IMG/VR virus record: IMGVR_UViG_3300042468_001294
Coordinates: 1-52,079 of that record
Length of the DNA: 52,079 nucleotides
Direction: 5' to 3' (one strand)
DNA from: a virus
Taxonomy: Duplodnaviria; Caudoviricetes
Shown piece by piece: positions 1 through 13,470 of this stretch. Made by a program: the position numbers and the translations under genes. Every line of letters starts with the position of its first letter. Within the stretch, counting starts at the first letter, position 1. The notes under the pieces were generated by a model, which did no database searches, was not told the origin of the DNA, and saw only the letters and a program-made list of their open reading frames with translations.

Positions 1-1
1 C

Positions 2-226
2 GCCCGGGCTGCCCGGGCGGCCGCCGAGCGGGGGCCCGCCGCCGCCGCCGCCCGGGCGGCCGCCCGGGCCCCCGGGGCCCCCGGCCTATGGTTCGGGGGC
101 CGGAACCGAGCCGGGGATCGGGCTGCCGAGCGGGCTGCCCGCCCGATCTGGGCTGCCGAGCGGGCTGCTGCCCGGGCGGCCGCCCGAGCCTGGGCCCGGG
201 CGGCCGCCGCCGCCGCCCAGGGCTAG
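2..226 (+). CDS. 3' part of an Ala/Arg-rich ORF whose start is probably at the far window end (52056)
   Basis: Frame 2 is open from base 2 to TAG 224-226 and reads ARAARAAAERGPAAAAARAAARAPGAPGLWFGG...RAAERAARPIWAAERAAARAAARAWARAAAAAQG*. It is followed by the same intergenic element that follows the next two genes. Confidence 0.6.
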   Translation, partial: ARAARAAAERGPAAAAARAAARAPGAPGLWFGGRNRAGDRAAERAARPIWAAERAAARAAARAWARAAAAAAQG

Positions 227-234
227 CCGCCCCC

Positions 235-305
235 GCCCCCCCGCCCGGGGGGGCCAGCCGAGAGGGCCCCGAACACGGACCCTCCCGGCTGGCAAACCCG
301 CCAGC
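235..305 (+). repeat. Structured intergenic element, copy 1 (three hairpins)
   Basis: Hairpins at 235-254, 254-292 and an alternative at 288-305; homologous to 925-993 and 1286-1354. Confidence 0.8.
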
Positions 306-328
306 ACAACCCAACCAGGAGAGCCAAA

Positions 329-916
329 ATGGCACGAGCACAGACGACAGGCAAGACCCGCACCGGAACCCGCACCGGAACCCGCACCGGAACCCAGAAC
401 CCCGAGCAGACCCAGAACCCCGAGCAGGCCCAGAACCCCGAGCAGGCCGCCCAGGCCGCCGCCGCCGAAGCCGCCGCCCAGGCCGCCGCCCAGGCCGCCG
501 CCCAGGCCGCCGCCTGGACCGAGACCATGCGGATCGACTGGCAGGCCGAGTCCGAAGCCGGGACCTTCCTGGGGACCTTCGCAGACTACCTGGCCCTGCA
601 GCAAGTCGGGGTCGGCCCCCGGGAGCGCTACACGGGTCGGATGTTGGCCCTGGTCGCAGCCCGCCAGCACTACGTGAAGGGGGGCAACGGGAACCAGCAC
701 TCGGGGGACTGGATCGGAACAGCCTTCCAAAATCTCCCCCGCACCGAAGTGGTCCGGTGCTGCATGGAGATTCTGCACCTGGAAGCCAACCCCTACACGC
801 ACCTCAACCCCGGGCAGCAGAGCATGAATCTCCGGAATAAGGTCCGGGGGGCCTGCCAGCGCGGCGAGATCCCAGTCGACCACGTGAAGGCCACGATCGC
901 GAAGTTCACGGCATAA
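329..916 (+). CDS. Early protein: low-complexity N-terminus (TRTG, QNPEQ, QAAA repeats) plus helical HLNxGxQxMNLxN domain
   Basis: GGAG SD, strong GC3 codon bias, motif shared with ORFs 7311 and 8997. Confidence 0.85.
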   Translation: MARAQTTGKTRTGTRTGTRTGTQNPEQTQNPEQAQNPEQAAQAAAAEAAAQAAAQAAAQAAAWTETMRIDWQAESEAGTFLGTFADYLALQQVGVGPRERYTGRMLALVAARQHYVKGGNGNQHSGDWIGTAFQNLPRTEVVRCCMEILHLEANPYTHLNPGQQSMNLRNKVRGACQRGEIPVDHVKATIAKFTA

Positions 917-924
917 GCCGGGGC

Positions 925-993
925 GGGGGCCGAAAGGCCCCCAGCCGAGAGGGTCCGGCAAGACGGGCCTTCCCGGCTGGGAATCCCCCCAGC
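925..993 (+). repeat. Structured intergenic element, copy 2
   Basis: GGGGGCC-GAAA-GGCCCCC; CCAGCCG..CGGCTGG long stem 941-980; GCTGGG-AATCCC-CCCAGC. Confidence 0.85.
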
Positions 994-1013
994 ACCAACC
1001 AACGGAGAGTAAG

Positions 1014-1277
1014 ATGACACAAACACTTGCACAAGCGGTCCAAGCCTACCGGACATCACAGGACGACACCGACCCCTCCGAGCAACACCGGCTGACCGAA
1101 GACGTAAGACGAGCCCTCACCGAGTCGAAGTTGCCCACGGACTTCCGCACCGTCGAGGACGACGACGAAGACGGGATTTTCGTTACCTTCCCCGACGAGT
1201 CTTACCTGAACGTGAAGCCGACCGGAGCCTGGTGGCACCACGAGGCCGAAGGTCAGCTGATCGCCAAATCGGAGTAA
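1014..1277 (+). CDS. Acidic early hypothetical protein
   Basis: GGAG SD, flanked by the repeat element. Confidence 0.8.
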   Translation: MTQTLAQAVQAYRTSQDDTDPSEQHRLTEDVRRALTESKLPTDFRTVEDDDEDGIFVTFPDESYLNVKPTGAWWHHEAEGQLIAKSE

Positions 1278-1285
1278 GCCGGGGC

Positions 1286-1354
1286 GGGGGCCTTACGGCC
1301 CCCAGCCGAGAGGGTCCGACACCACGGGCCTTCCCGGCTGGGAATCCCCCCAGC
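1286..1354 (+). repeat. Structured intergenic element, copy 3
   Basis: Stems identical to copy 2; differences are confined to loops (TTAC, ACACCA). Confidence 0.85.
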
Positions 1355-1375
1355 ACCAACCCAACGGAGAACGAA

Positions 1376-1681
1376 GTGGCACACGAAATCAGACTGACGA
1401 GCGAAGCTGCGGCGAAGCTGGAGCGCTTGTGGACCGTCTACAAGGAACTCGGACTGTCCCCCGACCAAGCCTTGGCTCTTACCATGGCCAAGGATCTGGC
1501 GGACCAACTGACAGAACAGATCCGGGCGCCCTTCTTGAACTGGCCCGAGAGCGAAGACGACACCTTCGACCTGACCGTCGAAGCCGAGAGGATGCTGGGC
1601 GAGTGGTTGGAAGATAGCCGCGAATCCTGGCGCGACGTACTGAGCGAAGTCACGCAGTACCTGACGGACAAACCGGAGTAA
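1376..1681 (+). CDS. Acidic helical early hypothetical protein (GTG start)
   Basis: GGAG SD at the same position after the repeat element as in other copies. Confidence 0.75.
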   Translation: MAHEIRLTSEAAAKLERLWTVYKELGLSPDQALALTMAKDLADQLTEQIRAPFLNWPESEDDTFDLTVEAERMLGEWLEDSRESWRDVLSEVTQYLTDKPE

Positions 1682-1689
1682 GGCCCCCC

Positions 1690-1740
1690 ATGGCCTTCCT
1701 GATTGCCCTGATCCGAGCGATACTTCGCGCAGGCAGATAA
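1690..1740 (+). CDS. Possible 16-aa peptide MAFLIALIRAILRAGR
   Basis: Fills the gap between a stop codon and the promoter; GGAG upstream; ends in TAAGCC like neighbouring genes. Confidence 0.35.
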   Translation: MAFLIALIRAILRAGR

Positions 1741-1748
1741 GCCAGCAC

Positions 1749-1777
1749 TTGACAAACCCGGGGCCCCGTGCTAAAAT
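1749..1777 (+). promoter_or_regulatory. sigma70 promoter TTGACA-17-TAAAAT with extended -10
   Basis: Consensus match; duplicated at 2285. Confidence 0.85.
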
Positions 1778-1809
1778 CGGGGTTCCCAACCGATAGAGGA
1801 GATAGCGAA

Positions 1810-2016
1810 ATGAGCAAGACCCCCGCAGACTTGGCCGCAGCCGTGGCCACCTGGGCGGAAGCCCAGCCCGAAGACACCAAGCGCGAGTGGCTGGAGCTTA
1901 GCGAGCCTTACCACGCCATGCTTAAGCAGAGCGGGCTGGGCCCGGAGTTCGACCGACTCACCCCGGACCAGCAGCACAAATTCTGGGACAAACTCGACAG
2001 CCGCTTCGTGGACTAA
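1810..2016 (+). CDS. Early hypothetical protein (MSKTPA...)
   Basis: GAGGAGATAG SD downstream of the promoter. Confidence 0.8.
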   Translation: MSKTPADLAAAVATWAEAQPEDTKREWLELSEPYHAMLKQSGLGPEFDRLTPDQQHKFWDKLDSRFVD

Positions 2017-2075
2017 GCCGCCCGGGGCCCCCGGCACCAGGGGCCCCACCCTCTTCGACCTTAGGAGAAACCAAG

Positions 2076-2276
2076 ATGACCAGCCCCCTGGACACCACTT
2101 ACGAAATCACCCTCACCCTGAAGCTGAAGGTGGATTGCGCTAACTTCGGACTTCCCTCGGAAACCCTGGCGCAAGCCATCAGCGAAGCACTCGCTGACTA
2201 CCGGCAGGTCCCGTTGACCGTCGTGGGCGACGATGAGGTCTTCATCAAGGAAGCCACCCTTGTAAACGTAGGCTAA
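2076..2276 (+). CDS. Early hypothetical protein
   Basis: TAGGAG SD after a GC hairpin at 2024-2047. Confidence 0.7.
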   Translation: MTSPLDTTYEITLTLKLKVDCANFGLPSETLAQAISEALADYRQVPLTVVGDDEVFIKEATLVNVG

Positions 2277-2284
2277 GCCTACCA

Positions 2285-2313
2285 TTGACAAACCCGGGGC
2301 CCCGTGCTAAAAT
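2285..2313 (+). promoter_or_regulatory. sigma70 promoter, identical copy of 1749-1777
   Basis: TTGACAAACCCGGGGCCCCGTGCTAAAAT. Confidence 0.85.
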
Positions 2314-2345
2314 CGGGGTTCCCGTTCACTAGAGGAGATAGCGAA

Positions 2346-2618
2346 ATGAGCAAGACCCCAGCAGCCTTTAGCAATCAGCAACTTTTGGCGCTTCGCCTTA
2401 TCGGTAACGGCTGGAATACTAAGCTCACCCCGTTTGGGAACGTGATTGTTTCCGCTCAAGCGCAAAGCCTCCAACGCGCCGGTTTGATTGTCCAAGAACC
2501 TCGCCGCTGGATGGGATATCGACTTACCGCCGCTGGCCGTACTATTGCCGCCAAGCCGACCAGGGCCCCCGGCACCGGGGGCCCCACTCTACCTTCGAAA
2601 TTAGGAGAAGCACGATGA
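2346..2618 (+). CDS. Early hypothetical protein (MSKTPA...), possibly winged-helix-like
   Basis: Same SD and first codons as 1810; LQRAGLIV...YRLTAAGR resembles a wHTH wing. Confidence 0.7.
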   Translation: MSKTPAAFSNQQLLALRLIGNGWNTKLTPFGNVIVSAQAQSLQRAGLIVQEPRRWMGYRLTAAGRTIAAKPTRAPGTGGPTLPSKLGEAR

Positions 2619-2827
2619 TCAGCGAAGACCGCAAGCAGGAGTTGACCCGCAAGGGCTACTACGTCGAAGACATGGGCGCGGAGTACGGCCCTGAATGGAA
2701 AGGGCAATTCCGTTGGATGAACAATATCGCCGCAGATTTCCAGGACGACGACACTTCCTTCAGTGTTGAGGATACCTGGGATTCCGCTGACCACCACGAA
2801 CAACACACGGGGACACAAAATGCGTAA
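2615..2827 (+). CDS. Acidic early hypothetical protein
   Basis: TAGGAG SD, ATGA overlap. Confidence 0.7.
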   Translation: MISEDRKQELTRKGYYVEDMGAEYGPEWKGQFRWMNNIAADFQDDDTSFSVEDTWDSADHHEQHTGTQNA

Positions 2828-2894
2828 GCAAGACATCCTGTTTGCCACGGCTTTTGGGCTTTGCCTCGGCATCCTGATCGGCCTGGGAATTTAA
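2820..2894 (+). CDS. 24-aa hydrophobic peptide MRKQDILFATAFGLCLGILIGLGI
   Basis: Overlaps the upstream stop, single TM-like segment, ends just before a terminator. Confidence 0.55.
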   Translation: MRKQDILFATAFGLCLGILIGLGI

Positions 2895-2901
2895 ACCCGC
2901 G

Positions 2902-2925
2902 AAGCCCGCCTTGTGCGGGCTTTTT
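2902..2925 (+). terminator. Rho-independent terminator
   Basis: AAGCCCGC-CTTGT-GCGGGCTTTTT. Confidence 0.85.
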
Positions 2926-2939
2926 CGTATCCGTCCTCA

Positions 2940-3001
2940 GCTTCGCTCTTCGGGCTTCGCAGCGGCGAGGGACACCTCGGCTTCGCTCTTCGGGCTTCGC
3001 A
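2940..3001. repeat. Direct repeat GCTTCGCTCTTCGGGCTTCGCA x2 (CTTCG-rich)
   Basis: Copies at 2940-2961 and 2980-3001. Confidence 0.85.
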
Positions 3002-3014
3002 CTTCGCCGCAAGT

Positions 3015-3104
3015 CCGAATCCGTAAGCCGACCTAGCTGAACCCCGAATCCGTAAGCCGACCTAGCTGAACCCCGAATCCGTAAGCCGACCTAGCTGAAC
3101 CCCG
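3015..3104. repeat. Perfect tandem repeat, 3 x 29 bp (CCGAATCCGTAAGCCGACCTAGCTGAACC)
   Basis: Units start at 3015, 3044 and 3073; no spacers. Confidence 0.95.
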
Positions 3105-3808
3105 GACCTTCGCACTTCGGAGTTATAGCGAAGTGCGAATTTCGAAGCCCAGAGGGAGAGGGTCTGGACCCACCTTCGGACTTACCGGAAAACCTAATTT
3201 TGAAGCCGGAAAAACAGGAACCAGGACAGCCCGAATATGATGAGAAAACATGGCGTTACCACGTTGTATACGATGTACACCGCTTATATAATTGACGTAC
3301 ATCCCCCGGCTGTGTTTTAATCTATATATTCTAAATAGTTTCGAAAAACACCTCGGAAGCCTATTTAGAAGATACTTGACGTACGGTCATGCCTTAGTTC
3401 AAAGAACGTTATATGGCCTTAGCTAGAGCCTAGATCCGACTTCCCCTTTATCATATATATACGGAAAACCCGGAAGGACGAGGGGAAAACCCCCCTGAGC
3501 ACACTTTTCCGGATTGGCTTGTGTCCAGTGGCTCTGGCATCACCGATTAGGTGTTCCACGCTGCTGTACAGTGGCTCTCGGAATATCGGAATCGGCCAGG
3601 GGGGTATTTCTGTTTTCCCGGGAACGTGGTACTGAACAGAGGGGCTTTCCCGACCCCCTCAGTTGCGTCCCAGCAACGCTAACCTTTGTCCTTGAGCCTA
3701 TCTTGGGACACCCTTTGTCCTTGGCTCGTGCTTGTTGTCCACTCGCACTTCGTGCTTGTTCCATTACCACCTTTCGCCCTTGTATCTAAGGCGGTGGTAA
3801 TGCACCTA

Positions 3809-3837
3809 TTGACAAATGTCCCTCCCTCTGTTAAAAT
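3809..3837 (+). promoter_or_regulatory. sigma70 promoter TTGACA-17-TAAAAT, extended -10
   Basis: Consensus match at the start of the second early operon. Confidence 0.85.
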
Positions 3838-3886
3838 ATATATATGGATCGAGAGTGGTCCATCACAACCCGGAGCATAGAGCATT

Positions 3887-4030
3887 ATGATCAACCAACT
3901 CGCCCTCGAATACGCGCAAGCGCTGATTCAGTACCACAAGGATCCCAGCACTTACCCGGCCTTGCTGTTCGCGCAGAATTTGCTTAACGCCGCTTGCAGC
4001 GCTGCTGCTCAAGAGGAGGCCGCCAAATGA
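3887..4030 (+). CDS. 47-aa hypothetical protein (MINQLALEY...), not in the ORF track
   Basis: GGAG SD; ATGA overlap with the next gene. Confidence 0.65.
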   Translation: MINQLALEYAQALIQYHKDPSTYPALLFAQNLLNAACSAAAQEEAAK

Positions 4031-4239
4031 TCAAGATTGGTGACACCGTGTGGGTGCAGCCTTGGGGCGATGCCGCCCCTGTTCAGCGTGTTGTTGAATA
4101 CATGGAGCTTTGCGACTCCGTTCGTGGCAAGCACGGCAAGCCTGTGACCACTGCTGATCTCGCCACCCAGGCCGATCGTTTGGTGGTCGATTTCGTCGGT
4201 AACAATGGCTGGGCGTATGGTACCCAGATACGGGTATGA
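4027..4239 (+). CDS. Small SH3/KOW-like hypothetical protein
   Basis: MIKIGDTVWV start; coupled overlaps. Confidence 0.7.
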   Translation: MIKIGDTVWVQPWGDAAPVQRVVEYMELCDSVRGKHGKPVTTADLATQADRLVVDFVGNNGWAYGTQIRV

Positions 4240-4577
4240 TTAAGACTTTTGTGTCCCCCCGCTTGACTCACCGCTACGTGGGTACTTGCAAACATCTTGA
4301 TCGCTGGTCATTCAAAGCTTTTCGGGTGACTTTCACTCCGGAGCGTCTTGTTGATCGGGGTAATCGCTTCGACGACTACGGGGCCACCATTAGATGGGCC
4401 ACCTTGCCAGCCGGTGTCGACCGAGCTTTGGTCGAACGAGCCATAGTCGAGACGCTTTCCCGCGAAGGCTGCCACCACGACTACGACTGCTGCGGCTGCC
4501 TCTCGTATCGTGTCCGTGTTCTGCACCGCAAGGGCAGACGTCTAGTGCTCAAGACCACCTACTCAAGGAACTATTGA
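4236..4577 (+). CDS. Hypothetical protein with CHHDYDCCGC metal-binding motif
   Basis: ATGA overlap; Cys/His cluster. Confidence 0.7.
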   Translation: MIKTFVSPRLTHRYVGTCKHLDRWSFKAFRVTFTPERLVDRGNRFDDYGATIRWATLPAGVDRALVERAIVETLSREGCHHDYDCCGCLSYRVRVLHRKGRRLVLKTTYSRNY

Positions 4578-4771
4578 TGCTCGCCACCTCAATCGCCGCC
4601 GCCGCCAAGGTGGCTAATTACACCGCCCAGCAATGCAAGTGGGCGATTGCTGACTGCCACGACACATTGAAGGTCGGTGGTTACGAATACGAACATCCCT
4701 ATGCCCAGAAGTTGTGGGCGGAGATCGATGCTTGCCGCGACCGTCTGAAGGTACTCACACCATGTACTTAG
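4577..4771 (+). CDS. Hypothetical protein
   Basis: TGATG overlap, AAGGA SD. Confidence 0.65.
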   Translation: MLATSIAAAAKVANYTAQQCKWAIADCHDTLKVGGYEYEHPYAQKLWAEIDACRDRLKVLTPCT

Positions 4772-4917
4772 TCACAAAACACTTTGTCTCTGGTCTTCTT
4801 GCAGGGCTACATATCACTGAGCAAACCCGGGTACGTTACGTGGTTGGGGTGCTTTACACACCTTGCGCGGGCTCCAGTAGTTACGTGGTGACGGGCATCG
4901 AGGAGGTCCCGACATGA
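4762..4917 (+). CDS. Hypothetical protein (MYLVTKHF...)
   Basis: Tiles the operon, ATGA overlap. Confidence 0.55.
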   Translation: MYLVTKHFVSGLLAGLHITEQTRVRYVVGVLYTPCAGSSSYVVTGIEEVPT

Positions 4918-5126
4918 GCAATTACCCAAACATGAGTTACTGCATGAACCAGAACACCTTAACTGCCTTGCAGCAGGTTGTGGATACCATGCAAGAGGAT
5001 GGGGTTGCCTTCTTGCGCGACCTTTCGCACGACGAACGTCGCGCCTTCCACGAATTGTTCAGCACCAGCCAGGAATTCCAGCGCTTGGCTGAAGAATTGC
5101 AAAGTGAATTAGAAGCCGGGGGTTGA
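4914..5126 (+). CDS. Hypothetical protein (MSNYPNMSYC...)
   Basis: GAGGAGG SD. Confidence 0.75.
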   Translation: MSNYPNMSYCMNQNTLTALQQVVDTMQEDGVAFLRDLSHDERRAFHELFSTSQEFQRLAEELQSELEAGG

Positions 5127-5151
5127 CAAACCCTACTGCCCCTGTTAAAAT
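5123..5151 (+). promoter_or_regulatory. sigma70 promoter TTGACA-17-TAAAAT, extended -10
   Basis: Consensus match followed by a GAGGAGATAG SD. Confidence 0.85.
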
Positions 5152-5181
5152 AGGTATTTTAACGATAGAGGAGATAGACGA

Positions 5182-5370
5182 ATGCCCCCTGTGCGAACGT
5201 ACATCAGCCGCAATCCCCAGGTTCCCAACACCCCGGTGTTGTTCAATATCGTCACCGACCACCTTAGCATGACCTGCTGGTTGAGCGACGAGCAAACCCG
5301 CATCATCCGCGATTCCCTAAACCTTGTTCTTGGAGAGCAAACATGCCCCGTACAGTCGACATCCAACTGA
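5182..5370 (+). CDS. Hypothetical protein
   Basis: Strong SD. Confidence 0.7.
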   Translation: MPPVRTYISRNPQVPNTPVLFNIVTDHLSMTCWLSDEQTRIIRDSLNLVLGEQTCPVQSTSN

Positions 5371-5579
5371 CCGACGAAGACCTCATCGCCATGGGTTATC
5401 CCTTGGTGTCCATCGGCTACCTGTCCACCTGGGCACTCGATGCCTACGACACCGTGACCATCTTTCGCGATGGTCGATCGCTTGACATGGTGGCCCACTT
5501 CCGCAGCACCGCCACAGGCAGGACATACACCATAGGTGCTGTCCGGAACGCAGACGGTAGCTACGGGTACCACTCCTGA
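5343..5579 (+). CDS. Hypothetical protein (ends YGYHS)
   Basis: GGAG SD. Confidence 0.7.
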   Translation: MPRTVDIQLTDEDLIAMGYPLVSIGYLSTWALDAYDTVTIFRDGRSLDMVAHFRSTATGRTYTIGAVRNADGSYGYHS

Positions 5580-5603
5580 GGCACGGAGCGTTTTCACAGC
5601 AAC

Positions 5604-5629
5604 CGGGTAGCTATATAGGTAGCTACCCG
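5604..5629. promoter_or_regulatory. Intergenic inverted repeat CGGGTAGCTA-TATAGG-TAGCTACCCG
   Basis: Perfect 10-bp arms; core recurs inverted at 13732-13746. Confidence 0.5.
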
Positions 5630-5654
5630 CCCCCTTTTAAAAAGGAAAGACGCC

Positions 5655-6023
5655 ATGCAAGTCATTAAACTCCGACCCGATGTCCTAGGTAATCACGGTG
5701 GTGCGCGTGTCTACATCAATGGCCGCCGCTGCAGTGTCTCCTCGGTTCGTCGATACACCGAATACAACAACCTCGTTTACGGCGAAAACCGCAATATCGA
5801 AGCTCGCGTGGCTCGCGCCAAAGAGCTTGGCCACCCGCTAGTGTGGATCAACCTGGAGTCCAGTGTAGTCTGCAGCGATCCCGGGTATTACGAACGTCAA
5901 GCAGCCCTTTGGGCTGACGCGCCAAGGATCATGACTGGCGATTTTGTAGACTTCGACGGTGAAGTGTTCAAGGTCGAGCCCACACACAACGGCAATTTCC
6001 AACTCATCCCCCGCAAGCCATGA
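5655..6023 (+). CDS. Hypothetical protein
   Basis: AGGA SD, coupled to the next gene. Confidence 0.75.
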   Translation: MQVIKLRPDVLGNHGGARVYINGRRCSVSSVRRYTEYNNLVYGENRNIEARVARAKELGHPLVWINLESSVVCSDPGYYERQAALWADAPRIMTGDFVDFDGEVFKVEPTHNGNFQLIPRKP

Positions 6024-6208
6024 AGTTCAACGACGCACAAATTGCAACGCTCCGCGCCGAATGGTCGAAGATCCGGAGCGTCGATCCAGGTATGCCTGCC
6101 TACAAACGTCTGATCACGTTTCTCGACAAGCTGCCACCCTCTCTTCTGGAGCAACTCGCTAACGAACAGATTCCGTTCGTTAGCGGCTTAGCGAGAAACC
6201 GAGTTTAA
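6020..6208 (+). CDS. Hypothetical protein
   Basis: ATGA overlap. Confidence 0.7.
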   Translation: MKFNDAQIATLRAEWSKIRSVDPGMPAYKRLITFLDKLPPSLLEQLANEQIPFVSGLARNRV

Positions 6209-6210
6209 TC

Positions 6211-6483
6211 ATGTACTACGTCCAATTCTACCAAAAGAGCGCAATTAGCGACGCGCTGATCGAAGCCAACGGCGATCGAAGTGTTGTAATACTCGACGGT
6301 CGCTGCTCCAGGCAGTGGATGGGCGAGACTGCCGCCGCTGAATGCAAAAGACGCGGATACCTCGCTTGGCGTATCTTTCGGGGTGAATCGTTCACGCGAA
6401 GCGCGCCAGTCAGCCAACTTTGGTATGCGAACACCACTACACCAACACGCAATCCAGCGTGGCTGGGTGCAATGGGGATGTAA
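6211..6483 (+). CDS. Hypothetical protein
   Basis: Tiles the operon; ILDGR motif. Confidence 0.7.
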   Translation: MYYVQFYQKSAISDALIEANGDRSVVILDGRCSRQWMGETAAAECKRRGYLAWRIFRGESFTRSAPVSQLWYANTTTPTRNPAWLGAMGM

Positions 6484-6491
6484 GCAAACCA

Positions 6492-6520
6492 TTGACAAAC
6501 CCTCTCTGGTCTGGTATAAT
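6492..6520 (+). promoter_or_regulatory. sigma70 promoter TTGACA-17-TATAAT, extended -10
   Basis: Perfect consensus. Confidence 0.9.
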
Positions 6521-6549
6521 TGGTGTACCAAATATAGAGGAGTGCCCCC

Positions 6550-6783
6550 GTGGACTACATAGCGCAAATCCCAACACACATCGACGGCATCCCCTGCTTG
6601 GTCGGTGTCACTTGCCACGAGCCTATCGTGCCCGCCACGTGGCACGACCCTGCCGAAGGTGGCGAGGTCGAGTGGAGAATTCTCGACAGCCGTGGTCGAG
6701 TGGCACCCTGGCTGGAACGCAAGCAGAACAGCGTAACCATCGAAAGGTTGATCAATGACTACTTCCTTCGCCTCGATCGCTGA
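6550..6783 (+). CDS. Conserved small phage protein (GIPCLVGV...ILDSRGRVAPWLERK)
   Basis: GAGGAG SD; recurrent phage motif. Confidence 0.75.
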   Translation: MDYIAQIPTHIDGIPCLVGVTCHEPIVPATWHDPAEGGEVEWRILDSRGRVAPWLERKQNSVTIERLINDYFLRLDR

Positions 6784-6931
6784 AGCCGTGGCGTACTACC
6801 TCAAAAGGGGGTACACCTCGACCAGCGATCAAGCACCATTCACCCGCTGGATGAAGTCGGCCACTGGCCAGCTTGTTCGCATTGAGCAGGTCGACTTTCT
6901 GACGGTGAAGGTGTCCCCGGAAAATGATTAA
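6755..6931 (+). CDS. 58-aa hypothetical protein (MTTSFASIAEAVAYY...), not in the ORF track
   Basis: Fills the gap between 6783 and 6924. Confidence 0.5.
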   Translation: MTTSFASIAEAVAYYLKRGYTSTSDQAPFTRWMKSATGQLVRIEQVDFLTVKVSPEND

Positions 6932-7247
6932 GATCGGTGACCTCATCATAGAGAAGCCGACGAAGCTGCTGCGGCAGGACGGTGAGTATACGTGCTCCGC
7001 CGGTACCTACGCAGTAAATTACACCGTCAACGACCTCGGAGTCGGTGGTTACATGACCGAGGTACCTGGGGTCGACCCTGGTGGCCACCGTTGTGTGATC
7101 TTCCTCGGTGGTGGTTGGTTCAGCAACACTAATTTGGAGGTACCAAATTACAATGGTCTTGGAAAATTCGAATCGACCGTAGATACTTTGCCAGTGGTCG
7201 GCAAATTCCAGACACAACTCGTGCCGAATCCGCAGTCACTACAATAG
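6924..7247 (+). CDS. Hypothetical protein
   Basis: MIKIGD start as in ORF 4027. Confidence 0.7.
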   Translation: MIKIGDLIIEKPTKLLRQDGEYTCSAGTYAVNYTVNDLGVGGYMTEVPGVDPGGHRCVIFLGGGWFSNTNLEVPNYNGLGKFESTVDTLPVVGKFQTQLVPNPQSLQ

Positions 7248-7276
7248 TTGACACACGAACGAGCCTGTGTTAAACT
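7248..7276 (+). promoter_or_regulatory. sigma70 promoter TTGACA-17-TAAACT, extended -10
   Basis: Consensus match. Confidence 0.8.
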
Positions 7277-7310
7277 CCAGTTTCCCTAGTTGATAGAGAG
7301 GTTTTTCCCC

Positions 7311-7898
7311 ATGTTCACAGTAGACAATACCCCCGTTCAAATCGTCAGCGTTTCTGGTGGCTGGACTACCGTTCAGTTCCAGGATGGTTCGACGAAGAAG
7401 GTTCGCAACTCAACCATCGTAGAGGTCAAAGTGGAAAAGAAGAAGGAAGCAAGCAAGATCGCCAAGATCAAGGAAACGCAGATCGACCTGAGCCGGTACT
7501 TCGTGTCCGACCAGAAGACGCCCTCGGGCCGCAAGACGATCGACTGCAACGACGAGATCGGCGTCGAACTCCGTGGCCGTGCCATCGACGAAGTGTACAC
7601 GGTCGCCGCCGAGCGACTGGGAACCACAGTCGATGCCTTGCGCAGCCAATACGGTCACCTCAATGTCGGCATGCAGCGCATGAACCTGGGCAACCGCATT
7701 CGTGGTGCCGGTCCCGCCCAGCAGAAGGCTGCTGCCCGGTTGCAGCGAGCCGCTGAACGCGAAGAGGCCGCACAGGCTCGCGCCATCGAACGTGCCCGCA
7801 TCGACGCCGAAAAGGCTGAGGCCAAGCGGCTGCGCGATGCTGAACTGGTGGCCAAGCGAGCGGCAAAGAAGGCCGTTGAAGAGGTGGCAATCGCCTAG
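7311..7898 (+). CDS. Basic protein with the HLNxGxQRMNLGN helical domain and Ala/Lys/Arg-rich tail
   Basis: GAGG SD; paralogue of 329 and 8997. Confidence 0.85.
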   Translation: MFTVDNTPVQIVSVSGGWTTVQFQDGSTKKVRNSTIVEVKVEKKKEASKIAKIKETQIDLSRYFVSDQKTPSGRKTIDCNDEIGVELRGRAIDEVYTVAAERLGTTVDALRSQYGHLNVGMQRMNLGNRIRGAGPAQQKAAARLQRAAEREEAAQARAIERARIDAEKAEAKRLRDAELVAKRAAKKAVEEVAIA

Positions 7899-7927
7899 TT
7901 GACACCGGGGGACGGCGGTGGTATACT
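7899..7927 (+). promoter_or_regulatory. sigma70 promoter TTGACA-17-TATACT, extended -10
   Basis: Consensus match. Confidence 0.85.
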
Positions 7928-7970
7928 ACCAATGTCCCCCACCCCACACATAGACTAGAGGATAGACAGC

Positions 7971-8216
7971 ATGGCAATCACTAGCACCGACTACCTGGGC
8001 CGCGAATGTACACTCGTGCACGAGAGCATGAACGAGCCAGTGAAAATTGACGAAGTGGTGAAATCCTTTCGAGGTGAGCCCTACCGAGTGATCGGTGGCC
8101 GAGCACCTCACAAATCCAGTTCGCAAGGCAAAGTCTGGTACGGCGATCCGCAGGACGAGCAAATCGGCGGCGAGTTTTACCCCTCGGTGCTGGGCTTGCA
8201 GTGGCGGCTGGCATGA
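7971..8216 (+). CDS. Conserved small phage protein (PHKSSSQGKV...EFYPSV)
   Basis: GAGGA SD. Confidence 0.75.
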   Translation: MAITSTDYLGRECTLVHESMNEPVKIDEVVKSFRGEPYRVIGGRAPHKSSSQGKVWYGDPQDEQIGGEFYPSVLGLQWRLA

Positions 8217-8344
8217 AGAAGGACAAGGGTTTCATTCTCGAAACGCTGGAAGGTACCAGTAGCTGGGTCCTGGTACCCATCGCAATAGTCGTTGGTGTTT
8301 TTGTGGCAGTCATTAACGCAGCACTCAAGATCGGGAGACAGTGA
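8213..8344 (+). CDS. 43-aa single-TM protein, not in the ORF track
   Basis: ATGA and TGATG overlaps; hydrophobic segment WVLVPIAIVVGVFVAVINAAL. Confidence 0.6.
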   Translation: MKKDKGFILETLEGTSSWVLVPIAIVVGVFVAVINAALKIGRQ

Positions 8345-8589
8345 TGAAGCAACGTCAATTTTTCAACCACCCAGCCCACCACCGAACCGGTGGCATTGCC
8401 TCCCGCGACCAAGCGTTTGCGTTGTGCGTAGATCGCACACACCGAGCCAACGACGCCATGTCTTTGATCATCGCAGGGGGACCTTTGGATGCCTGCGAAG
8501 TGATACCGGCAGGCGGCTGCAATTCCAACGTCTGGACCGACTGGCAAGGCGTACCTGTGCCAACCGTGTCCGGCATCGATCGCCCCTGA
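8344..8589 (+). CDS. Hypothetical protein
   Basis: GGGAG SD. Confidence 0.6.
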   Translation: MKQRQFFNHPAHHRTGGIASRDQAFALCVDRTHRANDAMSLIIAGGPLDACEVIPAGGCNSNVWTDWQGVPVPTVSGIDRP

Positions 8590-8600
8590 GGAGCAGCGTG

Positions 8601-8840
8601 ATGAAGTATTGGGTCGCGATGACTGACACATTCATGTCGGGCTGGGTGCACGATATGCGCATCAGCAAACTCGTGGTCGAATGTGACGACTACAAGCAAG
8701 CACTTTCAATTCACGGCCGCGCCCAGCGCAGGCCGGAAATGAAGTACATCAACATCCATGTCCGTCAACCTTCTTACGACGCACTTCGTTTTGTGGTGAG
8801 CACCAAGAGGTTCGACGAAATCCTATGGGAACACGTATGA
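8601..8840 (+). CDS. Conserved small phage protein (MTDTFMSGW...RPEMKYI)
   Basis: GAGGAG SD. Confidence 0.7.
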   Translation: MKYWVAMTDTFMSGWVHDMRISKLVVECDDYKQALSIHGRAQRRPEMKYINIHVRQPSYDALRFVVSTKRFDEILWEHV

Positions 8841-9064
8841 GAACCCTCGACGAACGTTGGGCGGCAGCACACGCTAACGGTACCCCCGAACTGCCCCTGT
8901 TGGCCGAGTTGGTCAGCCAGCAGGACACCGACGATAACCTTTACAACCGAGTGACGCAGCTAATCTGCAGCGCACTCGCACACTTGGAGAAGAAAGATGC
9001 TGACAAAGCGATTTTCTACGCGAAGCGCGACCTTGGAGAGTGTCGAGCACTCCTTGACTGCTGA
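8837..9064 (+). CDS. Hypothetical protein
   Basis: ATGA overlap. Confidence 0.6.
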   Translation: MRTLDERWAAAHANGTPELPLLAELVSQQDTDDNLYNRVTQLICSALAHLEKKDADKAIFYAKRDLGECRALLDC

Positions 9065-9539
9065 CCCCGCTCCGGAGTATACTCCGGGTGATTCCGTGAT
9101 GTACCGGGGGGATCCGGAGAATGTCTGGAGGGTGATCCATGTTGAAAGGGGCGTTAGCTGCTGGTGGACAAGGGCTGCGCAAAATAGCGTAAATCAGTCA
9201 TTCCCTGCCAACGTTTTCACCCGCATTGAGCGTCTGCGCGTGGCGAAAGTCGAGACTCCGAAAGTCGAGAAGATCGAGAAGCCGAAGCCGGTGACGATCG
9301 AGACGCCAAAGCCCGACCGTATCGCTGCACTCCTGGCTGAGGCCAGGGGATTGGACGAGGTGATCGAGATTGCCCGACTCGCCGGGATCGATTACACCAA
9401 AGACGAGGCGCGATCGCCAGGGCTGCAGCGTATGTACCTCGGTAACCTGCTGCGCAACAAAATGAAGCGAGGTGAATTCGACCCCGAGTCGATTTACTGG
9501 ACTGGACAAGGTTTTGCCCCCCGTGCATCACCTGTATAG
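8997..9539 (+). CDS. Protein with N-terminal SH3-like part and divergent GLQRMYLGN helical domain (true start probably 9054 or later)
   Basis: Motif shared with 329 and 7311. Confidence 0.7.
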   Translation: MLTKRFSTRSATLESVEHSLTADPAPEYTPGDSVMYRGDPENVWRVIHVERGVSCWWTRAAQNSVNQSFPANVFTRIERLRVAKVETPKVEKIEKPKPVTIETPKPDRIAALLAEARGLDEVIEIARLAGIDYTKDEARSPGLQRMYLGNLLRNKMKRGEFDPESIYWTGQGFAPRASPV

Positions 9540-9685
9540 CACATGCAGTTCTCGCCGGTTGGGGGGTTTGTAAGTTCGTAAACCGGCGGGATCTCCAAAG
9601 CAAGTAACGCCATTGCAATGTGTTTCGGCGTGACACCTCGGAGAGACGAGGACCAACATTCATTTAACACCGGAGATAGAGCAAA

Positions 9686-9961
9686 ATGGCAATTCCGAGC
9701 GTTTCAATCACAGATCCGAAGTTCATCTACCAAAACAGCGTGACGACTGATATTCGCAACCTTTGGCGTAAACACGGCTGGGCACCCCCTCAACGAATCA
9801 AGTCCCGGGTACGAAAGGTTGACATCCTGCAAGGCGGGCAGTTGATTGCGACCGTCGACCGACTCGACGACCACGCTACTCTGGTTGACGTCAAGACTCG
9901 CAACGGGATCGATTGGTTTCAACTGCAGCGAGAGGTGCAAAATGTGTTCCGACCAAGGTAG
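9686..9961 (+). CDS. Hypothetical protein
   Basis: GGAGATAG SD. Confidence 0.75.
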   Translation: MAIPSVSITDPKFIYQNSVTTDIRNLWRKHGWAPPQRIKSRVRKVDILQGGQLIATVDRLDDHATLVDVKTRNGIDWFQLQREVQNVFRPR

Positions 9962-10069
9962 GAAGCCCCGCACGGACGGCGTGGGTAGGCTGTTTTTGAT
10001 CGTCGCTGGTGCTGTGGCTGCTGCAGCATTGTTCGTTACCGTGGTTGGTTTGTTAATTTACATAATCAA

Positions 10070-10282
10070 ATGACCGAACGCAATTACGATACTGTCTCTG
10101 ATCTGACGATGAGAAACGTTTTTCGCGGGGAAGGTCTTGCATACCGACGCCGCTGTTTCGAATGTAATCAATCGAAAGAACAAACAGGTGGTTCAACGAG
10201 CAAGAAGCTCAAAATCTGGCGGTGCGCTGCTTGCACGACGAAAGCGAAGTCCGGGGTTGACAAACCCGCCGCCCCTTGTTAA
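10070..10282 (+). CDS. Small zinc-finger-like protein (CFEC...CAAC)
   Basis: Two CxxC pairs. Confidence 0.6.
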   Translation: MTERNYDTVSDLTMRNVFRGEGLAYRRRCFECNQSKEQTGGSTSKKLKIWRCAACTTKAKSGVDKPAAPC

Positions 10283-10285
10283 AAT
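10257..10285 (+). promoter_or_regulatory. sigma70 promoter TTGACA-17-TAAAAT, extended -10
   Basis: Consensus match followed by GAGGAGATAG. Confidence 0.85.
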
Positions 10286-10307
10286 AGAGTTTTTAGAGGA
10301 GATAGAT

Positions 10308-10556
10308 ATGGCCATCGAAAAGTGGACACAACACGACGAGGAGCTTTTGGCCCAAATGCAAGCTCGACGAGAGCGAGTTCATCAAGCCACGAGAAAGCCA
10401 CTCCAGCAATTCATCGATTTGTCGATGCCTACGGTGACCGAGCGTGAAGCTGTGATGTTGGTCACTGACTGGATGATCGCGAATGCCAAGTTCCTACGTG
10501 ATCTTCTTGAGCCATTTGATGACGGAGTGCGCCCGCCATGCGTAAATCAGGAATGA
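10308..10556 (+). CDS. Hypothetical protein
   Basis: Strong SD. Confidence 0.75.
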   Translation: MAIEKWTQHDEELLAQMQARRERVHQATRKPLQQFIDLSMPTVTEREAVMLVTDWMIANAKFLRDLLEPFDDGVRPPCVNQE

Positions 10557-10792
10557 CTGTCCGGGAATTGGTCCAGTGGCTCTCCACGTTCAAAGATCAG
10601 GACGCTGAAGTGGAAGTGATACGGCACAATCGTAGTACAAGCTGCTACGACCAAGGCGGCAGTATTAATGTTGTGGCGTTTGATCCCGACAAGCACACGA
10701 CATATCTCGACCTGCGCGGCAACCCGTTTGTCAAACCCGATGCGCCTTTTTATGGCAAACGGACGCTGTTGTTAGGTGAAACGGACGCATAA
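10553..10792 (+). CDS. Hypothetical protein (MTVRELVQWL...)
   Basis: ATGA overlap. Confidence 0.7.
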   Translation: MTVRELVQWLSTFKDQDAEVEVIRHNRSTSCYDQGGSINVVAFDPDKHTTYLDLRGNPFVKPDAPFYGKRTLLLGETDA

Positions 10793-10814
10793 CTTTCTTA
10801 GGAGATAGATACAT

Positions 10815-11135
10815 ATGAGCAAGCACACACCGGGGCCATGGCGAGCCACACTAGCGCCCTCACAATGCGAGGGTGTCAACGTGCAATTTTGCATCGATAC
10901 GGGGGGAGCGATCAGTATCGCGTATGGCCAAAGCCAGGAACACTTAGCCGACTATCGCGAGGCTGTGCTTGAAGAGCAGTGTCGCGCTAATGCTCTGCTT
11001 ATTGCCGCCGCGCCTGATCTGCTGGAGGTAGCAAAGCTCGCTCTGCGTATGGGTGTATATGGTGGCGTGTCCCCCAGCACTGTAGAAGACGCCGCCCGCG
11101 CCGCCATCGCCAAAGCTACCAGAGAAGCGAAATGA
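10815..11135 (+). CDS. Conserved phage protein (HTPGPW...ANALLIAAAPDLL)
   Basis: Common phage motif, GGAGATAG SD. Confidence 0.8.
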   Translation: MSKHTPGPWRATLAPSQCEGVNVQFCIDTGGAISIAYGQSQEHLADYREAVLEEQCRANALLIAAAPDLLEVAKLALRMGVYGGVSPSTVEDAARAAIAKATREAK

Positions 11136-11455
11136 AGTGGTACAACAAGCATAAGACAAATGAACTGACCGGAGCCGCCCTGGATTGGGCTGTGCACATA
11201 GCTCAAGGGCTGGGTGATGAGATCTATGGTCCGTACTCCACATCCTGGCAGGAGGGCGGGCCGATCATCGACCGAGAGATCACGCTTATGGCACTGAACA
11301 AACCCGACTGCCAAGCAACGATCATTCAAGGCGCAAATGCTTGGACAGCCTTCGGTCCCACCCCGCTCATCGCAGCTATGCGCTGCTTCGTCGCCTCCCG
11401 CCTGGGCGACACCATCAACATCCCCGCTAATTGGCCAGAGAGGAGCAAGACATGA
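11132..11455 (+). CDS. NinX/DUF2591-like phage protein
   Basis: LTGAALDWAV...YSTSWQEGGPII...GPTPLIAAMRCFV motifs. Confidence 0.75.
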   Translation: MKWYNKHKTNELTGAALDWAVHIAQGLGDEIYGPYSTSWQEGGPIIDREITLMALNKPDCQATIIQGANAWTAFGPTPLIAAMRCFVASRLGDTINIPANWPERSKT

Positions 11456-11577
11456 AACAGAAGTACGAAGGCCAGGGCTTGGAGAGGTTCTGGCACACCC
11501 TGCTCACCTTCGCCATCATCGGCGCGGTGTCGGTGCTGGGGTGGAGTCTGTATGTGCTGTGGAGGGTACTGACATGA
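11452..11577 (+). CDS. 41-aa single-TM protein, not in the ORF track
   Basis: ATGA overlaps at both ends, AGGAG SD. Confidence 0.6.
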   Translation: MKQKYEGQGLERFWHTLLTFAIIGAVSVLGWSLYVLWRVLT

Positions 11578-11951
11578 CTGACCTGAGAGACGCTGCGCAT
11601 CAGGCACTGGAGGCGTTGGAGAGCACGCAGCTTTTTGCGGCGCATGAGCACTACCCGCGCCGGCGTGTTGCTGACACCCTCGACGCCCTCCGCGCCGCGC
11701 TGGAGCAGACGGAGCAGGAGCCGGTGGCTCGGTTTGACGAGCGATACGGTGGACCAGTCTTGCTGGCAAGTGCGCCGATGTTGCGTGACGGCCAACTGTT
11801 ATATACCGACCCACCCCGCCGCGAGTGGCGGTCGTTGAGTGAGGAGGAGATTCTCCCGCGCTATCTAGGCCGCATGCTGTACAGCCACGCGGAGATGCTT
11901 GAGTTTTCCCGCGCCATCGAGGCCGCTTTAAGGAGCAAGAACCATGAGTGA
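11574..11951 (+). CDS. Modular phage protein (QALEAL...EQEPVA...RAIEAALRSKN)
   Basis: GGAGG SD; motifs typical of proteobacterial phage accessory genes. Confidence 0.75.
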   Translation: MTDLRDAAHQALEALESTQLFAAHEHYPRRRVADTLDALRAALEQTEQEPVARFDERYGGPVLLASAPMLRDGQLLYTDPPRREWRSLSEEEILPRYLGRMLYSHAEMLEFSRAIEAALRSKNHE

Positions 11952-12480
11952 CCTACGAACCGCCGCCCAGCAGGCGCTGGAGCAGCCGGAGCAGGGGCCG
12001 GTGGCGTGGCCGAAGGGGCGTGATCTATTTCTGCGCGATGACATGGGGAAAGGTCAACTGCGCGTCATGTTCGACGGCGACAACGATGTAATCGTGGCGA
12101 TCTGGCCCCATGACAAACCTTCCGCATCGGTGGAGTTTTGCAATGGATTCAACGGCGGTGGCAAGTCATTGGAGACACGCAAGGCGCTGATCGCGCTGAT
12201 GTGTGCGATGGAGCGTGACGGCGCACACGCCAGACCGCACGTCGATAACACTGGCCCTCTGCCCCGCGCCGCGCTGGAGCAGCCGGAGCAGGACACCGAC
12301 TGCCACGCGCAGGGCATCTGCCAGCGCAGCGGATACGGCATAGGGCAGCCGGAGCAGGTCGTTCCCTACGCCGTATGGCGGCAGGGCTTCGACGCTGTGA
12401 GGAAATACAAGGAGCAGTCGGATCAAGGCGGCAAAACCGGATGGCCTCCAGGCCAAGCTGAAGGAGTTGAACCACCATGA
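11944..12480 (+). CDS. Modular phage protein with EQPEQ repeats
   Basis: AAGGAG SD; shares DNA repeats with the upstream gene. Confidence 0.7.
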   Translation: MSDLRTAAQQALEQPEQGPVAWPKGRDLFLRDDMGKGQLRVMFDGDNDVIVAIWPHDKPSASVEFCNGFNGGGKSLETRKALIALMCAMERDGAHARPHVDNTGPLPRAALEQPEQDTDCHAQGICQRSGYGIGQPEQVVPYAVWRQGFDAVRKYKEQSDQGGKTGWPPGQAEGVEPP

Positions 12481-12989
12481 CTGAACAAACCAAAGTCGAG
12501 CCAGTTGGTGAGGTCTACAGACATGGCAAAGATTCACACGGGCGGCAATGGCATGGGGTCCACTGGTACGACCCTAATCTGGATGTGCCGACAGGAACAA
12601 AACTCTTCATCCACGCACCTTACCAGACAAACCCCTGGCGCGATGCCGTAGACCATGAGCTTTCAACCCTGCACATGGTCGCCAGCGATGACCCGCGAGA
12701 GTCCATTCGACGCCTGATCAATTGGCACTGCGCTGTGCAGATCGACCCGCTGGTTTCCTCCGCCGCTCAAGCACTTATTGAACGGGGACGGAAAGAAGCG
12801 TTGGGGCAGCCCGCCGAATGCCATTGGGTACAAGATGGTCATGAAGACTCAGAAACCTGGGCCGCATCGTGCAGCAGACACCGATACTTCTCGCTAAACG
12901 AAGGGACTCCCAAAGACAACCACATGAAGTATTGTTGCTACTGTGGTAAACCTTTGGTGGAAGTACCATTTGAAGCGGAGGACAAATAA
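12477..12989 (+). CDS. Phage protein with C-terminal Zn ribbon (YCCYCGK)
   Basis: ATGA overlap, AAGGAG SD. Confidence 0.75.
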   Translation: MTEQTKVEPVGEVYRHGKDSHGRQWHGVHWYDPNLDVPTGTKLFIHAPYQTNPWRDAVDHELSTLHMVASDDPRESIRRLINWHCAVQIDPLVSSAAQALIERGRKEALGQPAECHWVQDGHEDSETWAASCSRHRYFSLNEGTPKDNHMKYCCYCGKPLVEVPFEAEDK

Positions 12990-13234: not shown

Positions 13235-13470
13235 CCCGCGACGACATCATTAAGTGGGCGCAGCAGGCCGGTATCAAATTACCGGATGGTCCGTTCCCAG
13301 AACGTGGCTCGTTCGACTTGCCTGAAGTGATTCGCTTGTCTGGTTTGGCTTACGCCGCTGGAACTGCTGCCGAGCACAAGAGATGTGTCGAAAGAGTAAA
13401 CATCGCGTTACTTGGTTGCGAGATATCCATCCGTGACAGGGTAATACGCGCTTTGGAGGTAAAATCGTGA
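13231..13470 (+). CDS. Hypothetical protein (MTRDDIIKWAQQAG...)
   Basis: ATGA overlap. Confidence 0.7.
   Translation: MTRDDIIKWAQQAGIKLPDGPFPERGSFDLPEVIRLSGLAYAAGTAAEHKRCVERVNIALLGCEISIRDRVIRALEVKS

Follow-up and report, generated by a model that had tools for sequence, protein, structure and literature searches.

What does a phage gain from a hairpin-forming segment of about 70 nt that is set three times between its first genes? This question was raised by the IMG/VR virus record IMGVR_UViG_3300042468_001294, which is a siphovirus-like, uncultivated phage from lake water; the window analyzed here is the complete record (52,079 bp), which is classified as linear with an estimated completeness of 100%. 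The three copies lie on the + strand at the left end of the record (235-305, 925-993, and 1286-1354), and each begins a few bases past a stop codon and reaches to the Shine-Dalgarno sequence that serves the following gene. We found that the element is a real, selected, and lineage-restricted structure without a known family, known from two genomes. It is most likely a variation on the theme of phage intergenic processing sites, and our leading but still tentative reading is that it acts in the early mRNA of the + strand as a module for processing the message and protecting its ends.

Each copy can form three hairpins, termed H1, H2, and H3. H1 in the window is an all-GC stem of 7-8 pairs with a 4-nt loop; its 5' arm is C-rich in copy 1 and G-rich in copies 2 and 3. 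H2 abuts H1 without a linker. It consists of eight lower pairs (CCCAGCCG/CGGCUGGG, the outermost being G-C in copy 1 instead of C-G), an invariant A.C mismatch, GAGGG/CCYUC above the mismatch and then a variable apical part, with up to nine upper pairs; its outermost 1-3 pairs compete with the last pairs of H1. H3 is made of the last six bases of the H2 3' arm paired with CCAGC-containing bases 6 nt downstream. An initial annotation, made from the sequence alone, had described three repeated copies between a stop codon and a Shine-Dalgarno leader, a flipped H1 in copy 1, and a long H2 stem with variable loops and a G-U to G-C change. This anatomy was confirmed: the copies were recovered as repeat families D5 (909-1000 vs. 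1270-1361, 91% identical over 92 nt, a span that takes in the final codons of each upstream gene) and D6 (272-315, 960-1003, and 1321-1364), the H2 stem has 17 pairs with the A.C mismatch in all copies, and the G-C/G-U change was found at alignment column 13/32. The hairpins and leaders of the three copies are as follows; bit scores are those of R1, a covariance model of H2.

235-254, + strand: copy 1 H1, eight pairs of G and C only, GCCCCCCC / GGGGGGGC, loop GCCC, 8 nt after the TAG at 224-226; from the sequence and the minimum free energy (MFE) fold
253-260 with 286-293, + strand: copy 1 H2 lower stem (H2 as a whole 253-293), mismatch A261.C285
262-266 with 280-284, + strand: copy 1 H2 upper stem, irregular apical part above; 15/17 pairs standard in the common register
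288-305, + strand: copy 1 H3, GCUGGC 288-293 (within the H2 3' arm), loop AAACCC, GCCAGC 300-305
306-331, + strand: copy 1 leader, A/C-rich, Shine-Dalgarno AGGAGAG 317-323, ATG 329
925-942, + strand: copy 2 H1, GGGGGCC-GAAA-GGCCCCC, 8 nt after the TAA at 914-916
940-981, + strand: copy 2 H2, lower stem 940-947 with 974-981, mismatch A948.C973, upper stem 949-957 with 964-972, loop 958-963; 17/17 pairs standard, two G.U in the upper stem; 80.3 bits
976-993, + strand: copy 2 H3, GCUGGG 976-981, loop AAUCCC, CCCAGC 988-993
994-1016, + strand: copy 2 leader, ACCAACCAAC, Shine-Dalgarno GGAGAG 1004-1009, ATG 1014
1286-1303, + strand: copy 3 H1, GGGGGCC-UUAC-GGCCCCC, 8 nt after the TAA at 1275-1277
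1301-1342, + strand: copy 3 H2, lower stem 1301-1308 with 1335-1342, mismatch A1309.C1334, upper stem 1310-1318 with 1325-1333, loop 1319-1324; 80.5 bits
1337-1354, + strand: copy 3 H3, GCUGGG 1337-1342, loop AAUCCC, CCCAGC 1349-1354
1355-1378, + strand: copy 3 leader, ACCAACCCAAC, Shine-Dalgarno GGAGA 1366-1370, GTG 1376

Each of the three regions folded better than 200/200 shuffled sequences (z = -4.0, -5.2, and -3.3). The intergenic regions folded at -54 to -58 kcal/mol overall, and the Shine-Dalgarno sequence was unpaired in every fold. Two candidate features were rejected. An outer closing stem that would create a three-way junction was predicted in the MFE folds for copies 2 and 3 and, built from different bases, in the related record described below; copy 1 lacks it, so that it is not conserved. 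A tRNA-like ACCA after H3 was seen by eye in copies 2 and 3 only.

A search with the primase retrieved one related viral record, G001 (42,476 bp, 88% primase identity). It carries one full copy of the element directly upstream of the ortholog of the 195-aa gene that follows copy 1 in the window; the stop codon of an unrelated 80-aa gene lies 6 nt before this copy.

Upstream of the 195-aa ortholog in G001, coding strand: H1, GCCCCC-GGCA-GGGGGC
Upstream of the 195-aa ortholog in G001, coding strand: H2, CCCAGCGG-A-GAGGGCCUG / CGGGUCCUC-C-CCGCUGGG
Upstream of the 195-aa ortholog in G001, coding strand: H3, GCUGGGC-AGCC-GCCCAGC

On the coding strand, each of the four known copies is thus preceded by a stop codon and followed by the Shine-Dalgarno sequence of another gene. 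The element is 70-73% identical between G001 and the window, and the adjacent coding sequence 56-65%; the pairing is nonetheless retained. Inside the window only copy 1 vs. copies 2 and 3 is an informative comparison, and the decisive one is with G001. In the alignment of the four sequences, 97.1% of the 68 cells of H2 (17 pairs) hold standard pairs, and sliding the partner column by 1-3 positions lowered the paired fraction to 31-57%. Double changes are found at two pairs, column 2/43 (G-C vs. C-G) and column 8/37 (C-G vs. G-C); four pairs show one-sided changes, each from G-C to G-U or U-G, and ten pairs are invariant. RNAalifold, run on an independent alignment, predicted part of H1 and all of H2, with double changes at four pairs. 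A column-shuffle control on the four sequences was not decisive (38/500 shuffles reached the observed H2 pairing). We also ran simulations in which as many positions as had actually changed were substituted at random. Between G001 and copy 2, six changes in paired columns left 17/17 pairs intact, an outcome reached in 0.06% of the trials (chance of 0.0006), and between G001 and copy 1 four changes in the lower stem left 8/8 pairs intact (chance of 0.008); these comparisons share sequences and are not independent of each other. Six substitutions separate copies 2 and 3 in the stretch bounded by the stop codon and the Shine-Dalgarno sequence, and 6/6 affect the 10 bases of the H1 and H2 apical loops (Fisher p = 6e-7, with 72 non-loop positions); the leader also has a 1-nt indel. 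These comparisons indicate that the H2 pairing is under selection and that the element is a selected RNA structure, as the initial annotation had proposed: the pairing is kept across two genomes by double and wobble changes.

Because the helices are conserved while the loops vary freely, the element would be recognized through its helix and not through loops or a folded pocket, and for the same reason boxB-like sites, coat-protein-type operators, riboswitches, and ribozymes are disfavored. The lambda nut sites resemble the element in having a small GC hairpin ahead of the first early gene, and the H1 loop of copy 2 is GAAA. BoxB is read through a conserved loop by the N protein, whereas the four H1 loops are GCCC, GAAA, UUAC, and GGCA and the H2 loops differ as well; inspection by eye of the sequence adjoining the copies found neither boxA nor a sigma-54 motif. 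The six H3 pairs are standard in 4/4 copies, with one double change (column 43/50), and column 43 changes together with column 2, to which it pairs in H2, and with column 50, its partner in H3. For H3 the alignment is suggestive only.

As to the strand, the R1 scores of the four copies are 74-80 bits when the + strand is read and 30-35 bits for the - strand, and in copies 2 and 3 and in G001 the + strand form of H2 is favored by 4.6-7.0 kcal/mol. The + strand reading is based mainly on the direction of the genes, the spacing to the stop codon and Shine-Dalgarno sequence, and the wobble-type one-sided changes.

The distribution of the element was found to be narrow. Within the window R1 detected the three copies at 76-80 bits, and the best unrelated place scored 13 bits. 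Searches with the primase, the 195-aa gene, and the small terminase subunit (TerS) each returned G001 as the only relative. The DNA polymerase retrieved three further records (G002-G004, 63-70% identity), in which R1 found no match (best score, 8.6 bits); one of them, G003, is 96% complete, and there a weak 195-aa homolog is preceded by an AT-rich, promoter-like region instead of the element. Alignment of the 195-aa protein against genome contigs gave no relative. Three exact-core patterns yielded 0, 1 (G001), and 12 stretches in viral contigs, the last pattern excluding G001 by one base, and no further H2 copy; the best R1 score among the 12 stretches was 17 bits. Exact-core scans of metagenome contigs (six stretches, four distinct sequences) and of genome contigs (one genome per species, ~185,000 species; six stretches) likewise gave no further copy, and none of the stretches that were folded (10, plus 5/12 of the last viral scan) forms H2; more diverged copies would escape such exact-core scans. 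Blastn against named phages produced a 23-nt chance match only, and megablast of 1-6000 nothing. Rfam gave no match at the gathering score over the whole window; at E <= 10 over 150-1500 it gave five matches of 12-19 bits, all far below the gathering scores of 40-91 bits. For the record itself, 23 runs labeled as lake-water metagenomes contain at least half of the sampled words of 200-3200, and 5/23 may be a source of the record. Contigs from three DNA runs were identical to the window wherever they covered the copies, and supplied no population variants for covariation. A single RNA run contributed no contig over the element, which is uninformative.

How could such a structure act? In the reading that we tentatively favor, the H2 helix with its A.C mismatch, abutting H1, would be the substrate of a double-strand-specific endoribonuclease, most likely the host RNase III. 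After a cut in H2, the GC-only H1, 6-8 nt past the stop codon, would stay as a 3'-terminal barrier on the upstream message, and the H2 3' arm, once released, would pair with the CCAGC segment downstream of it to make H3. The downstream message would thereby gain a base-paired 5' end, just ahead of an unstructured A/C-rich leader and the Shine-Dalgarno sequence. We infer the cut itself, RNase III as the enzyme, and the protection of the ends by H1 and H3. The geometry of the element is consistent with such a sequence of events. The 5' arm of H3 begins 3 nt past the mismatched C in 4/4 copies. In folding of the intact RNA, H2 formed and H3 did not in all four copies; RNA starting just after the mismatched C was predicted to form H3 with 0-3 unpaired 5' bases and a free Shine-Dalgarno sequence, and the upstream fragment kept H1. 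In copy 1, for example, H3 appeared in the fold only if the RNA started after C285. In silico, H3 forms only once the H2 5' arm is removed. Among the functions offered by the initial annotation, an RNase III-type site with H3 as a post-cut 5' hairpin is the best anatomical fit; its refolding step is reproduced by the folding predictions, and its cleavage step stays conjectural.

Processed RNA ends are monophosphorylated. Passages of PMC3997798 state that RppH and 5'-end-dependent RNase E decay prefer single-stranded 5' ends and that both enzymes are hindered by 5' base pairing (PMC3997798, citing Emory et al. 1992, Bouvet & Belasco 1992). The 5' stem-loop stabilizers of the E. coli ompA and papA mRNAs, as treated in these passages, are similar in that H3 would place a stem within 0-3 nt of the processed 5' end, an arrangement described as shielding mRNA from 5'-end-dependent decay; they differ in being located at primary or RNase E-made ends, whereas H3 would arise by refolding after a competing helix is cut.

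We also folded three T7 intergenic regions that presumably hold the early RNase III sites R0.5, R1, and R1.3 (the RefSeq record does not annotate them), and each folded as one irregular hairpin. The T7 regions share with the element the layout of stop codon, hairpin, and Shine-Dalgarno sequence repeated along the early transcript, a helix with an internal irregularity, and, if the element is cut as proposed, an upstream message that ends in a hairpin. They are single, AU-richer hairpins of -20 to -26 kcal/mol with a larger internal loop, whereas the element has three hairpins, with a GC-rich main helix carrying a 1x1 A.C mismatch and then a built-in alternative 5' hairpin, H3. No sequence similarity to T7 was found, nor any similarity with the H2 covariance model. 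To our knowledge, no phage RNase III site has been described in which cleavage triggers refolding into a protective 5' hairpin within the same 70-nt element, and keyword searches of the open-access literature returned no such site. It is conceivable, if rather doubtful, that the element is self-contained punctuation, in which a single cut in H2 would leave an H1-capped upstream and an H3-capped downstream RNA and make each cistron an independently stabilized message. If this is true, it would amount to a small natural insulator by which an operon transcript is cut and its two new ends are shielded, would help explain how a phage can tune the levels of its early gene products relative to each other with no added promoters, and would be a candidate part for synthetic operons. 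The scope is narrow, at four copies in two related viral records; even so, selection on RNA pairing was detectable in an uncultivated lake phage from only two genomes.

Several observations weigh against processing and end protection. Bacterial RNase III substrates are irregular helices with an internal loop and a length of about two helical turns. The 17 pairs of H2, interrupted by nothing but a 1x1 mismatch, make it by itself shorter and more regular than the T7 or classical RNase III sites; the two-turn length (~24 stacked pairs) is reached only if H1 stacks on H2. The RNase III of the host may have preferences of its own. The covariation of H3 is weak, with one changed pair and a chance of 0.03-0.10 in the simulation, so that of the initial proposal that H3 reuses the H2 3' arm and covaries, the reuse holds and the covariation is uncertain. 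Pairing taken alone gives no uniform answer on the strand: in copy 1 the - strand form of H2 is the more stable one, by 8.7 kcal/mol, and the invariant A.C mismatch would become a G.U pair on that strand. Leaders that start at the eight sigma-70 promoters of this phage (see below) are short and 7/8 are essentially unstructured, so a 5' hairpin is not a general need of its mRNAs, and for this reason we dropped the idea of a 5' hairpin theme shared across the phage mRNAs. H1-like hairpins occur without H2 or H3 in the same GC-rich block, and H1 may have a role of its own. The whole sample, four copies in two genomes, is below what R-scape-grade statistics call for.

In a possible but distinctly less probable reading, the hairpins work uncut: H1 and H2 would block 3'-to-5' exonucleases, shorten the naked RNA between cistrons, and insulate the downstream ribosome-binding site, with H3 incidental. 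With similar doubt, the A/C-rich leader would here stay single-stranded as a standby or enhancer site. The high stability of the whole intergenic region, the Shine-Dalgarno sequence left unpaired in all folds, the H1-only hairpins in the same position at 2021-2048, 2559-2586, and G001 L004 ~1990-2011, and the thin support for H3 would all fit. Uncut hairpins leave unexplained why one position covaries with both its H2 and H3 partners (columns 2/43/50), why H3 always starts 3 nt past the conserved mismatch, and why an A.C mismatch is invariant in a near-perfect helix. A role at the DNA level is unlikely, either as a linker cassette that shuffles early genes by recombination or as a palindromic site for a phage or host protein. 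The first form is modeled on the PeSLs, mobile regulatory cassettes of an early promoter and a terminator stem-loop in T4-type phages, proposed to be exchange points at the borders of variable ORFs (PMC4122927). The likeness to the PeSLs lies in short, repeated intergenic stem-loop cassettes bordering variable early ORFs: the 92 nt over which copies 2 and 3 agree at 91% reach into the last codons of the genes before them, and the two copies flank two genes without a match in four related records. The element has neither a promoter nor a U-tract, unlike PeSLs, and the promoter cassettes of this phage are a separate repeat family (D4/D7); recombination may moreover be a consequence of the repeats and not their function. 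As for a protein-binding palindrome, conserved arms with variable centers would also suit dimeric DNA-binding proteins, and H2 of copy 1 is the better palindrome on the - strand, but 4/4 one-sided H2 changes convert G-C to G-U on the + strand, which in duplex DNA breaks the symmetry, and the two double changes restore complementarity, which is not required of a half-site read by a protein. The repeats may also serve, or have served, as recombination points.

Transcription-based explanations fare worse. It is very unlikely that H1, or H1 plus H2, is an attenuator or terminator without a U-tract that grades expression along the operon. GC-only hairpins directly after stop codons would suit one, and Ingham, Hunter, and Smith reportedly described in 1995 U-less terminators in the early region of the actinophage phiC31, but the nearest named relatives of this phage infect Gammaproteobacteria. 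No T-run follows H1, H2, or H3 (H1 is followed by AGCCGAG, H3 by ACCAACC), 0/11 terminator-like sites in a scan of 1-15000 fall in a copy, and the phage has a canonical U-tract terminator at 2904-2930 by sequence reading, which the scan did not list; H3 and the mismatch would be left unexplained. Three copies of a put-like processive antiterminator or anti-pausing RNA acting on RNA polymerase have, in our view, very little probability. According to passages of PMC9378689, the put RNAs measure ~70 nt and consist of two stem-loops with bulges, stem I forming a triplex; one put follows each early promoter, ahead of terminators, and acts on the zinc-binding domain of the RNA polymerase beta' subunit. 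The element agrees with the HK022 put RNAs of these passages in size (~60-70 nt), in having two adjacent stem-loops, and in its early-operon location, and the genes examined include no recognizable N or Q function. The proposal, made in the initial annotation, fails on stem architecture, copy number, and position. H1 is a perfect stem of 6-8 pairs and H2 carries a single mismatch, in contrast to the multiply bulged put stems with their triplex; the three copies stand in series after coding genes with no promoter just upstream, no terminator was found between them, and R1 finds nothing in the HK022 genome at E <= 10. Rfam is uninformative on this point, since it has no put model and gave 0 matches in HK022 27600-30100, presumably the location of the put sites. 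A new class of self-cleaving ribozyme, or a ligand-sensing switch toggling H2 and H3, is extremely improbable, even though the two pairings are mutually exclusive and no known family matches. The stems are conserved and the loops free, the reverse of the ribozyme and riboswitch pattern, and there is no conserved junction or pocket. The two-state switch of the initial annotation is disfavored by the energies, H2 far outcompeting H3 in intact RNA (about -30 to -36 kcal/mol for H2 vs. about -12 to -18 kcal/mol for the whole truncated H3 RNA), which makes free switching unlikely, and a known self-cleaving ribozyme or riboswitch finds no support in Rfam.

The copies belong to a block of small genes on the + strand that occupies ~300 to 14,000. 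The - strand genes include DNA polymerase, two helicases, primase, tape-measure protein, portal, and major head protein, with TerS at 50962-51618 (- strand). By primase (~40% identity), the nearest named phages are siphoviruses that infect the Gammaproteobacteria Salmonella, Pseudomonas, Klebsiella, and Acinetobacter. GC content in the first ~3 kb is 58-75%, compared with 41-62% (mostly ~50-56%) across most of the genome, and the first ~3 kb is skewed A>T. The three genes that follow the copies are listed below.

329-916, + strand: gene of 195 aa, ATG at 329, TAA 914-916
1014-1277, + strand: gene of 87 aa, ATG at 1014, TAA 1275-1277
1376-1681, + strand: gene of 101 aa, GTG start at 1376

The 195-aa protein has an ortholog in G001 at 54% amino-acid identity, with third codon positions least conserved. 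Its N-terminal third consists of short tandem repeats (TRTG x3, QNPEQ x3, and AAQA-type), and its C-terminal part (..NPY.HLNPGQQSMNLRNKVRG..) is common to hypothetical proteins of VP2/phiVC8-group Vibrio phages and Alteromonas phage ZP6 (37-40% identity over 58-78 residues). It matches two PHROG families, both of unknown function; Pfam gave nothing above threshold and the protein atlas no usable match. The 87-aa and 101-aa genes, flanked by copies 2 and 3, were matched in 0/4 related records, which, at 66-96% completeness, fall short of proving the genes absent. The TAG at 224-226 before copy 1 closes a low-complexity open frame of doubtful gene status within a GC-rich repeat, and the G001 gene that precedes the element has no counterpart there.

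In a promoter scan, the + strand showed eight near-consensus sigma-70 promoters of the extended -10 type (TTGACA-17-TAAAAT), all within 1749-10285, which serve the + strand genes from 1749 onward; no sigma-70-type promoter was found on this strand in 1-1748. Because none was found there, the first three + strand genes look like one unit that needs internal punctuation; we infer a polycistronic transcript over them, and the promoter of this unit probably lies in the 51650-52079 / 1-230 region. The eight promoters consist of TTGACA, a 17-nt spacer that contains TG, and a -10 element reading TAAAAT, TATAAT, or nearly so. Several of them are inside a repeated cassette bounded by a TAAGCC stop context and a common Shine-Dalgarno block ATAGAGGAGATAG (families D4, D7, and D11), a second family of intergenic cassettes that is separate from the hairpin element.

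The region between terS (- strand) and the first + strand genes (51650-52079 and 1-230) contains an AT-rich stretch. Five GACCAAG/GACCAAA repeats are found there at ~51752-51855, and the motif CGACAAATATGGTAG...GAACGCGGAGAAACCA is common to this region and G001. GC-rich repeats extend across both record ends, and a Shine-Dalgarno sequence with ATG at 52056 opens a frame running to the end of the record; G001 instead has repeats of the ATCGAC type. The palindrome GGGGCCCC occurs eight times (74, 1760, 2024, 2040, 2296, 2578, 52012, and 52025; 1.1 expected from whole-window shuffles). All eight copies are in the GC-rich block at the record ends, two of them inside the spacers of promoters 1749 and 2285; the palindrome could be an operator or merely reflect local composition. 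The simple H1-like hairpins at 2021-2048 and 2559-2586 and in G001 (L004 ~1990-2011) each correspond to two GGGGCCCC copies shortly after a stop codon, in the position of H1. The one at 2559-2586 is inside an open frame (2346-2618) whose last ~20 codons continue through the hairpin, with CAA where the paralogous cassette has TAA.

The U-tract terminator hairpin at ~2904-2930 on the + strand reads GCCCGC-CTTGT-GCGGGC followed by TTTTT. It is followed by two 27-nt repeats with CGCTCTT (2935-3001), three exact 29-nt tandem units (3015-3104), and a largely non-coding stretch to ~3800; different tandem repeats are found at the matching place in G001 (L004 2280-2790). One freshwater metatranscriptome library contains two contigs that match 1842-2003 and 2341-2503 with zero differences, in genes just downstream of the sigma-70 promoters 1749 and 2285; this is only a hint of expression, since an RNA library can contain DNA. 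A hydrophobic mini-ORF of 16 codons (MAFLIALIRAILRAGR) is located at 1690-1740, between the 101-aa gene and promoter 1749, and the matching region of G001 has small hydrophobic ORFs of 40 and 29 aa.

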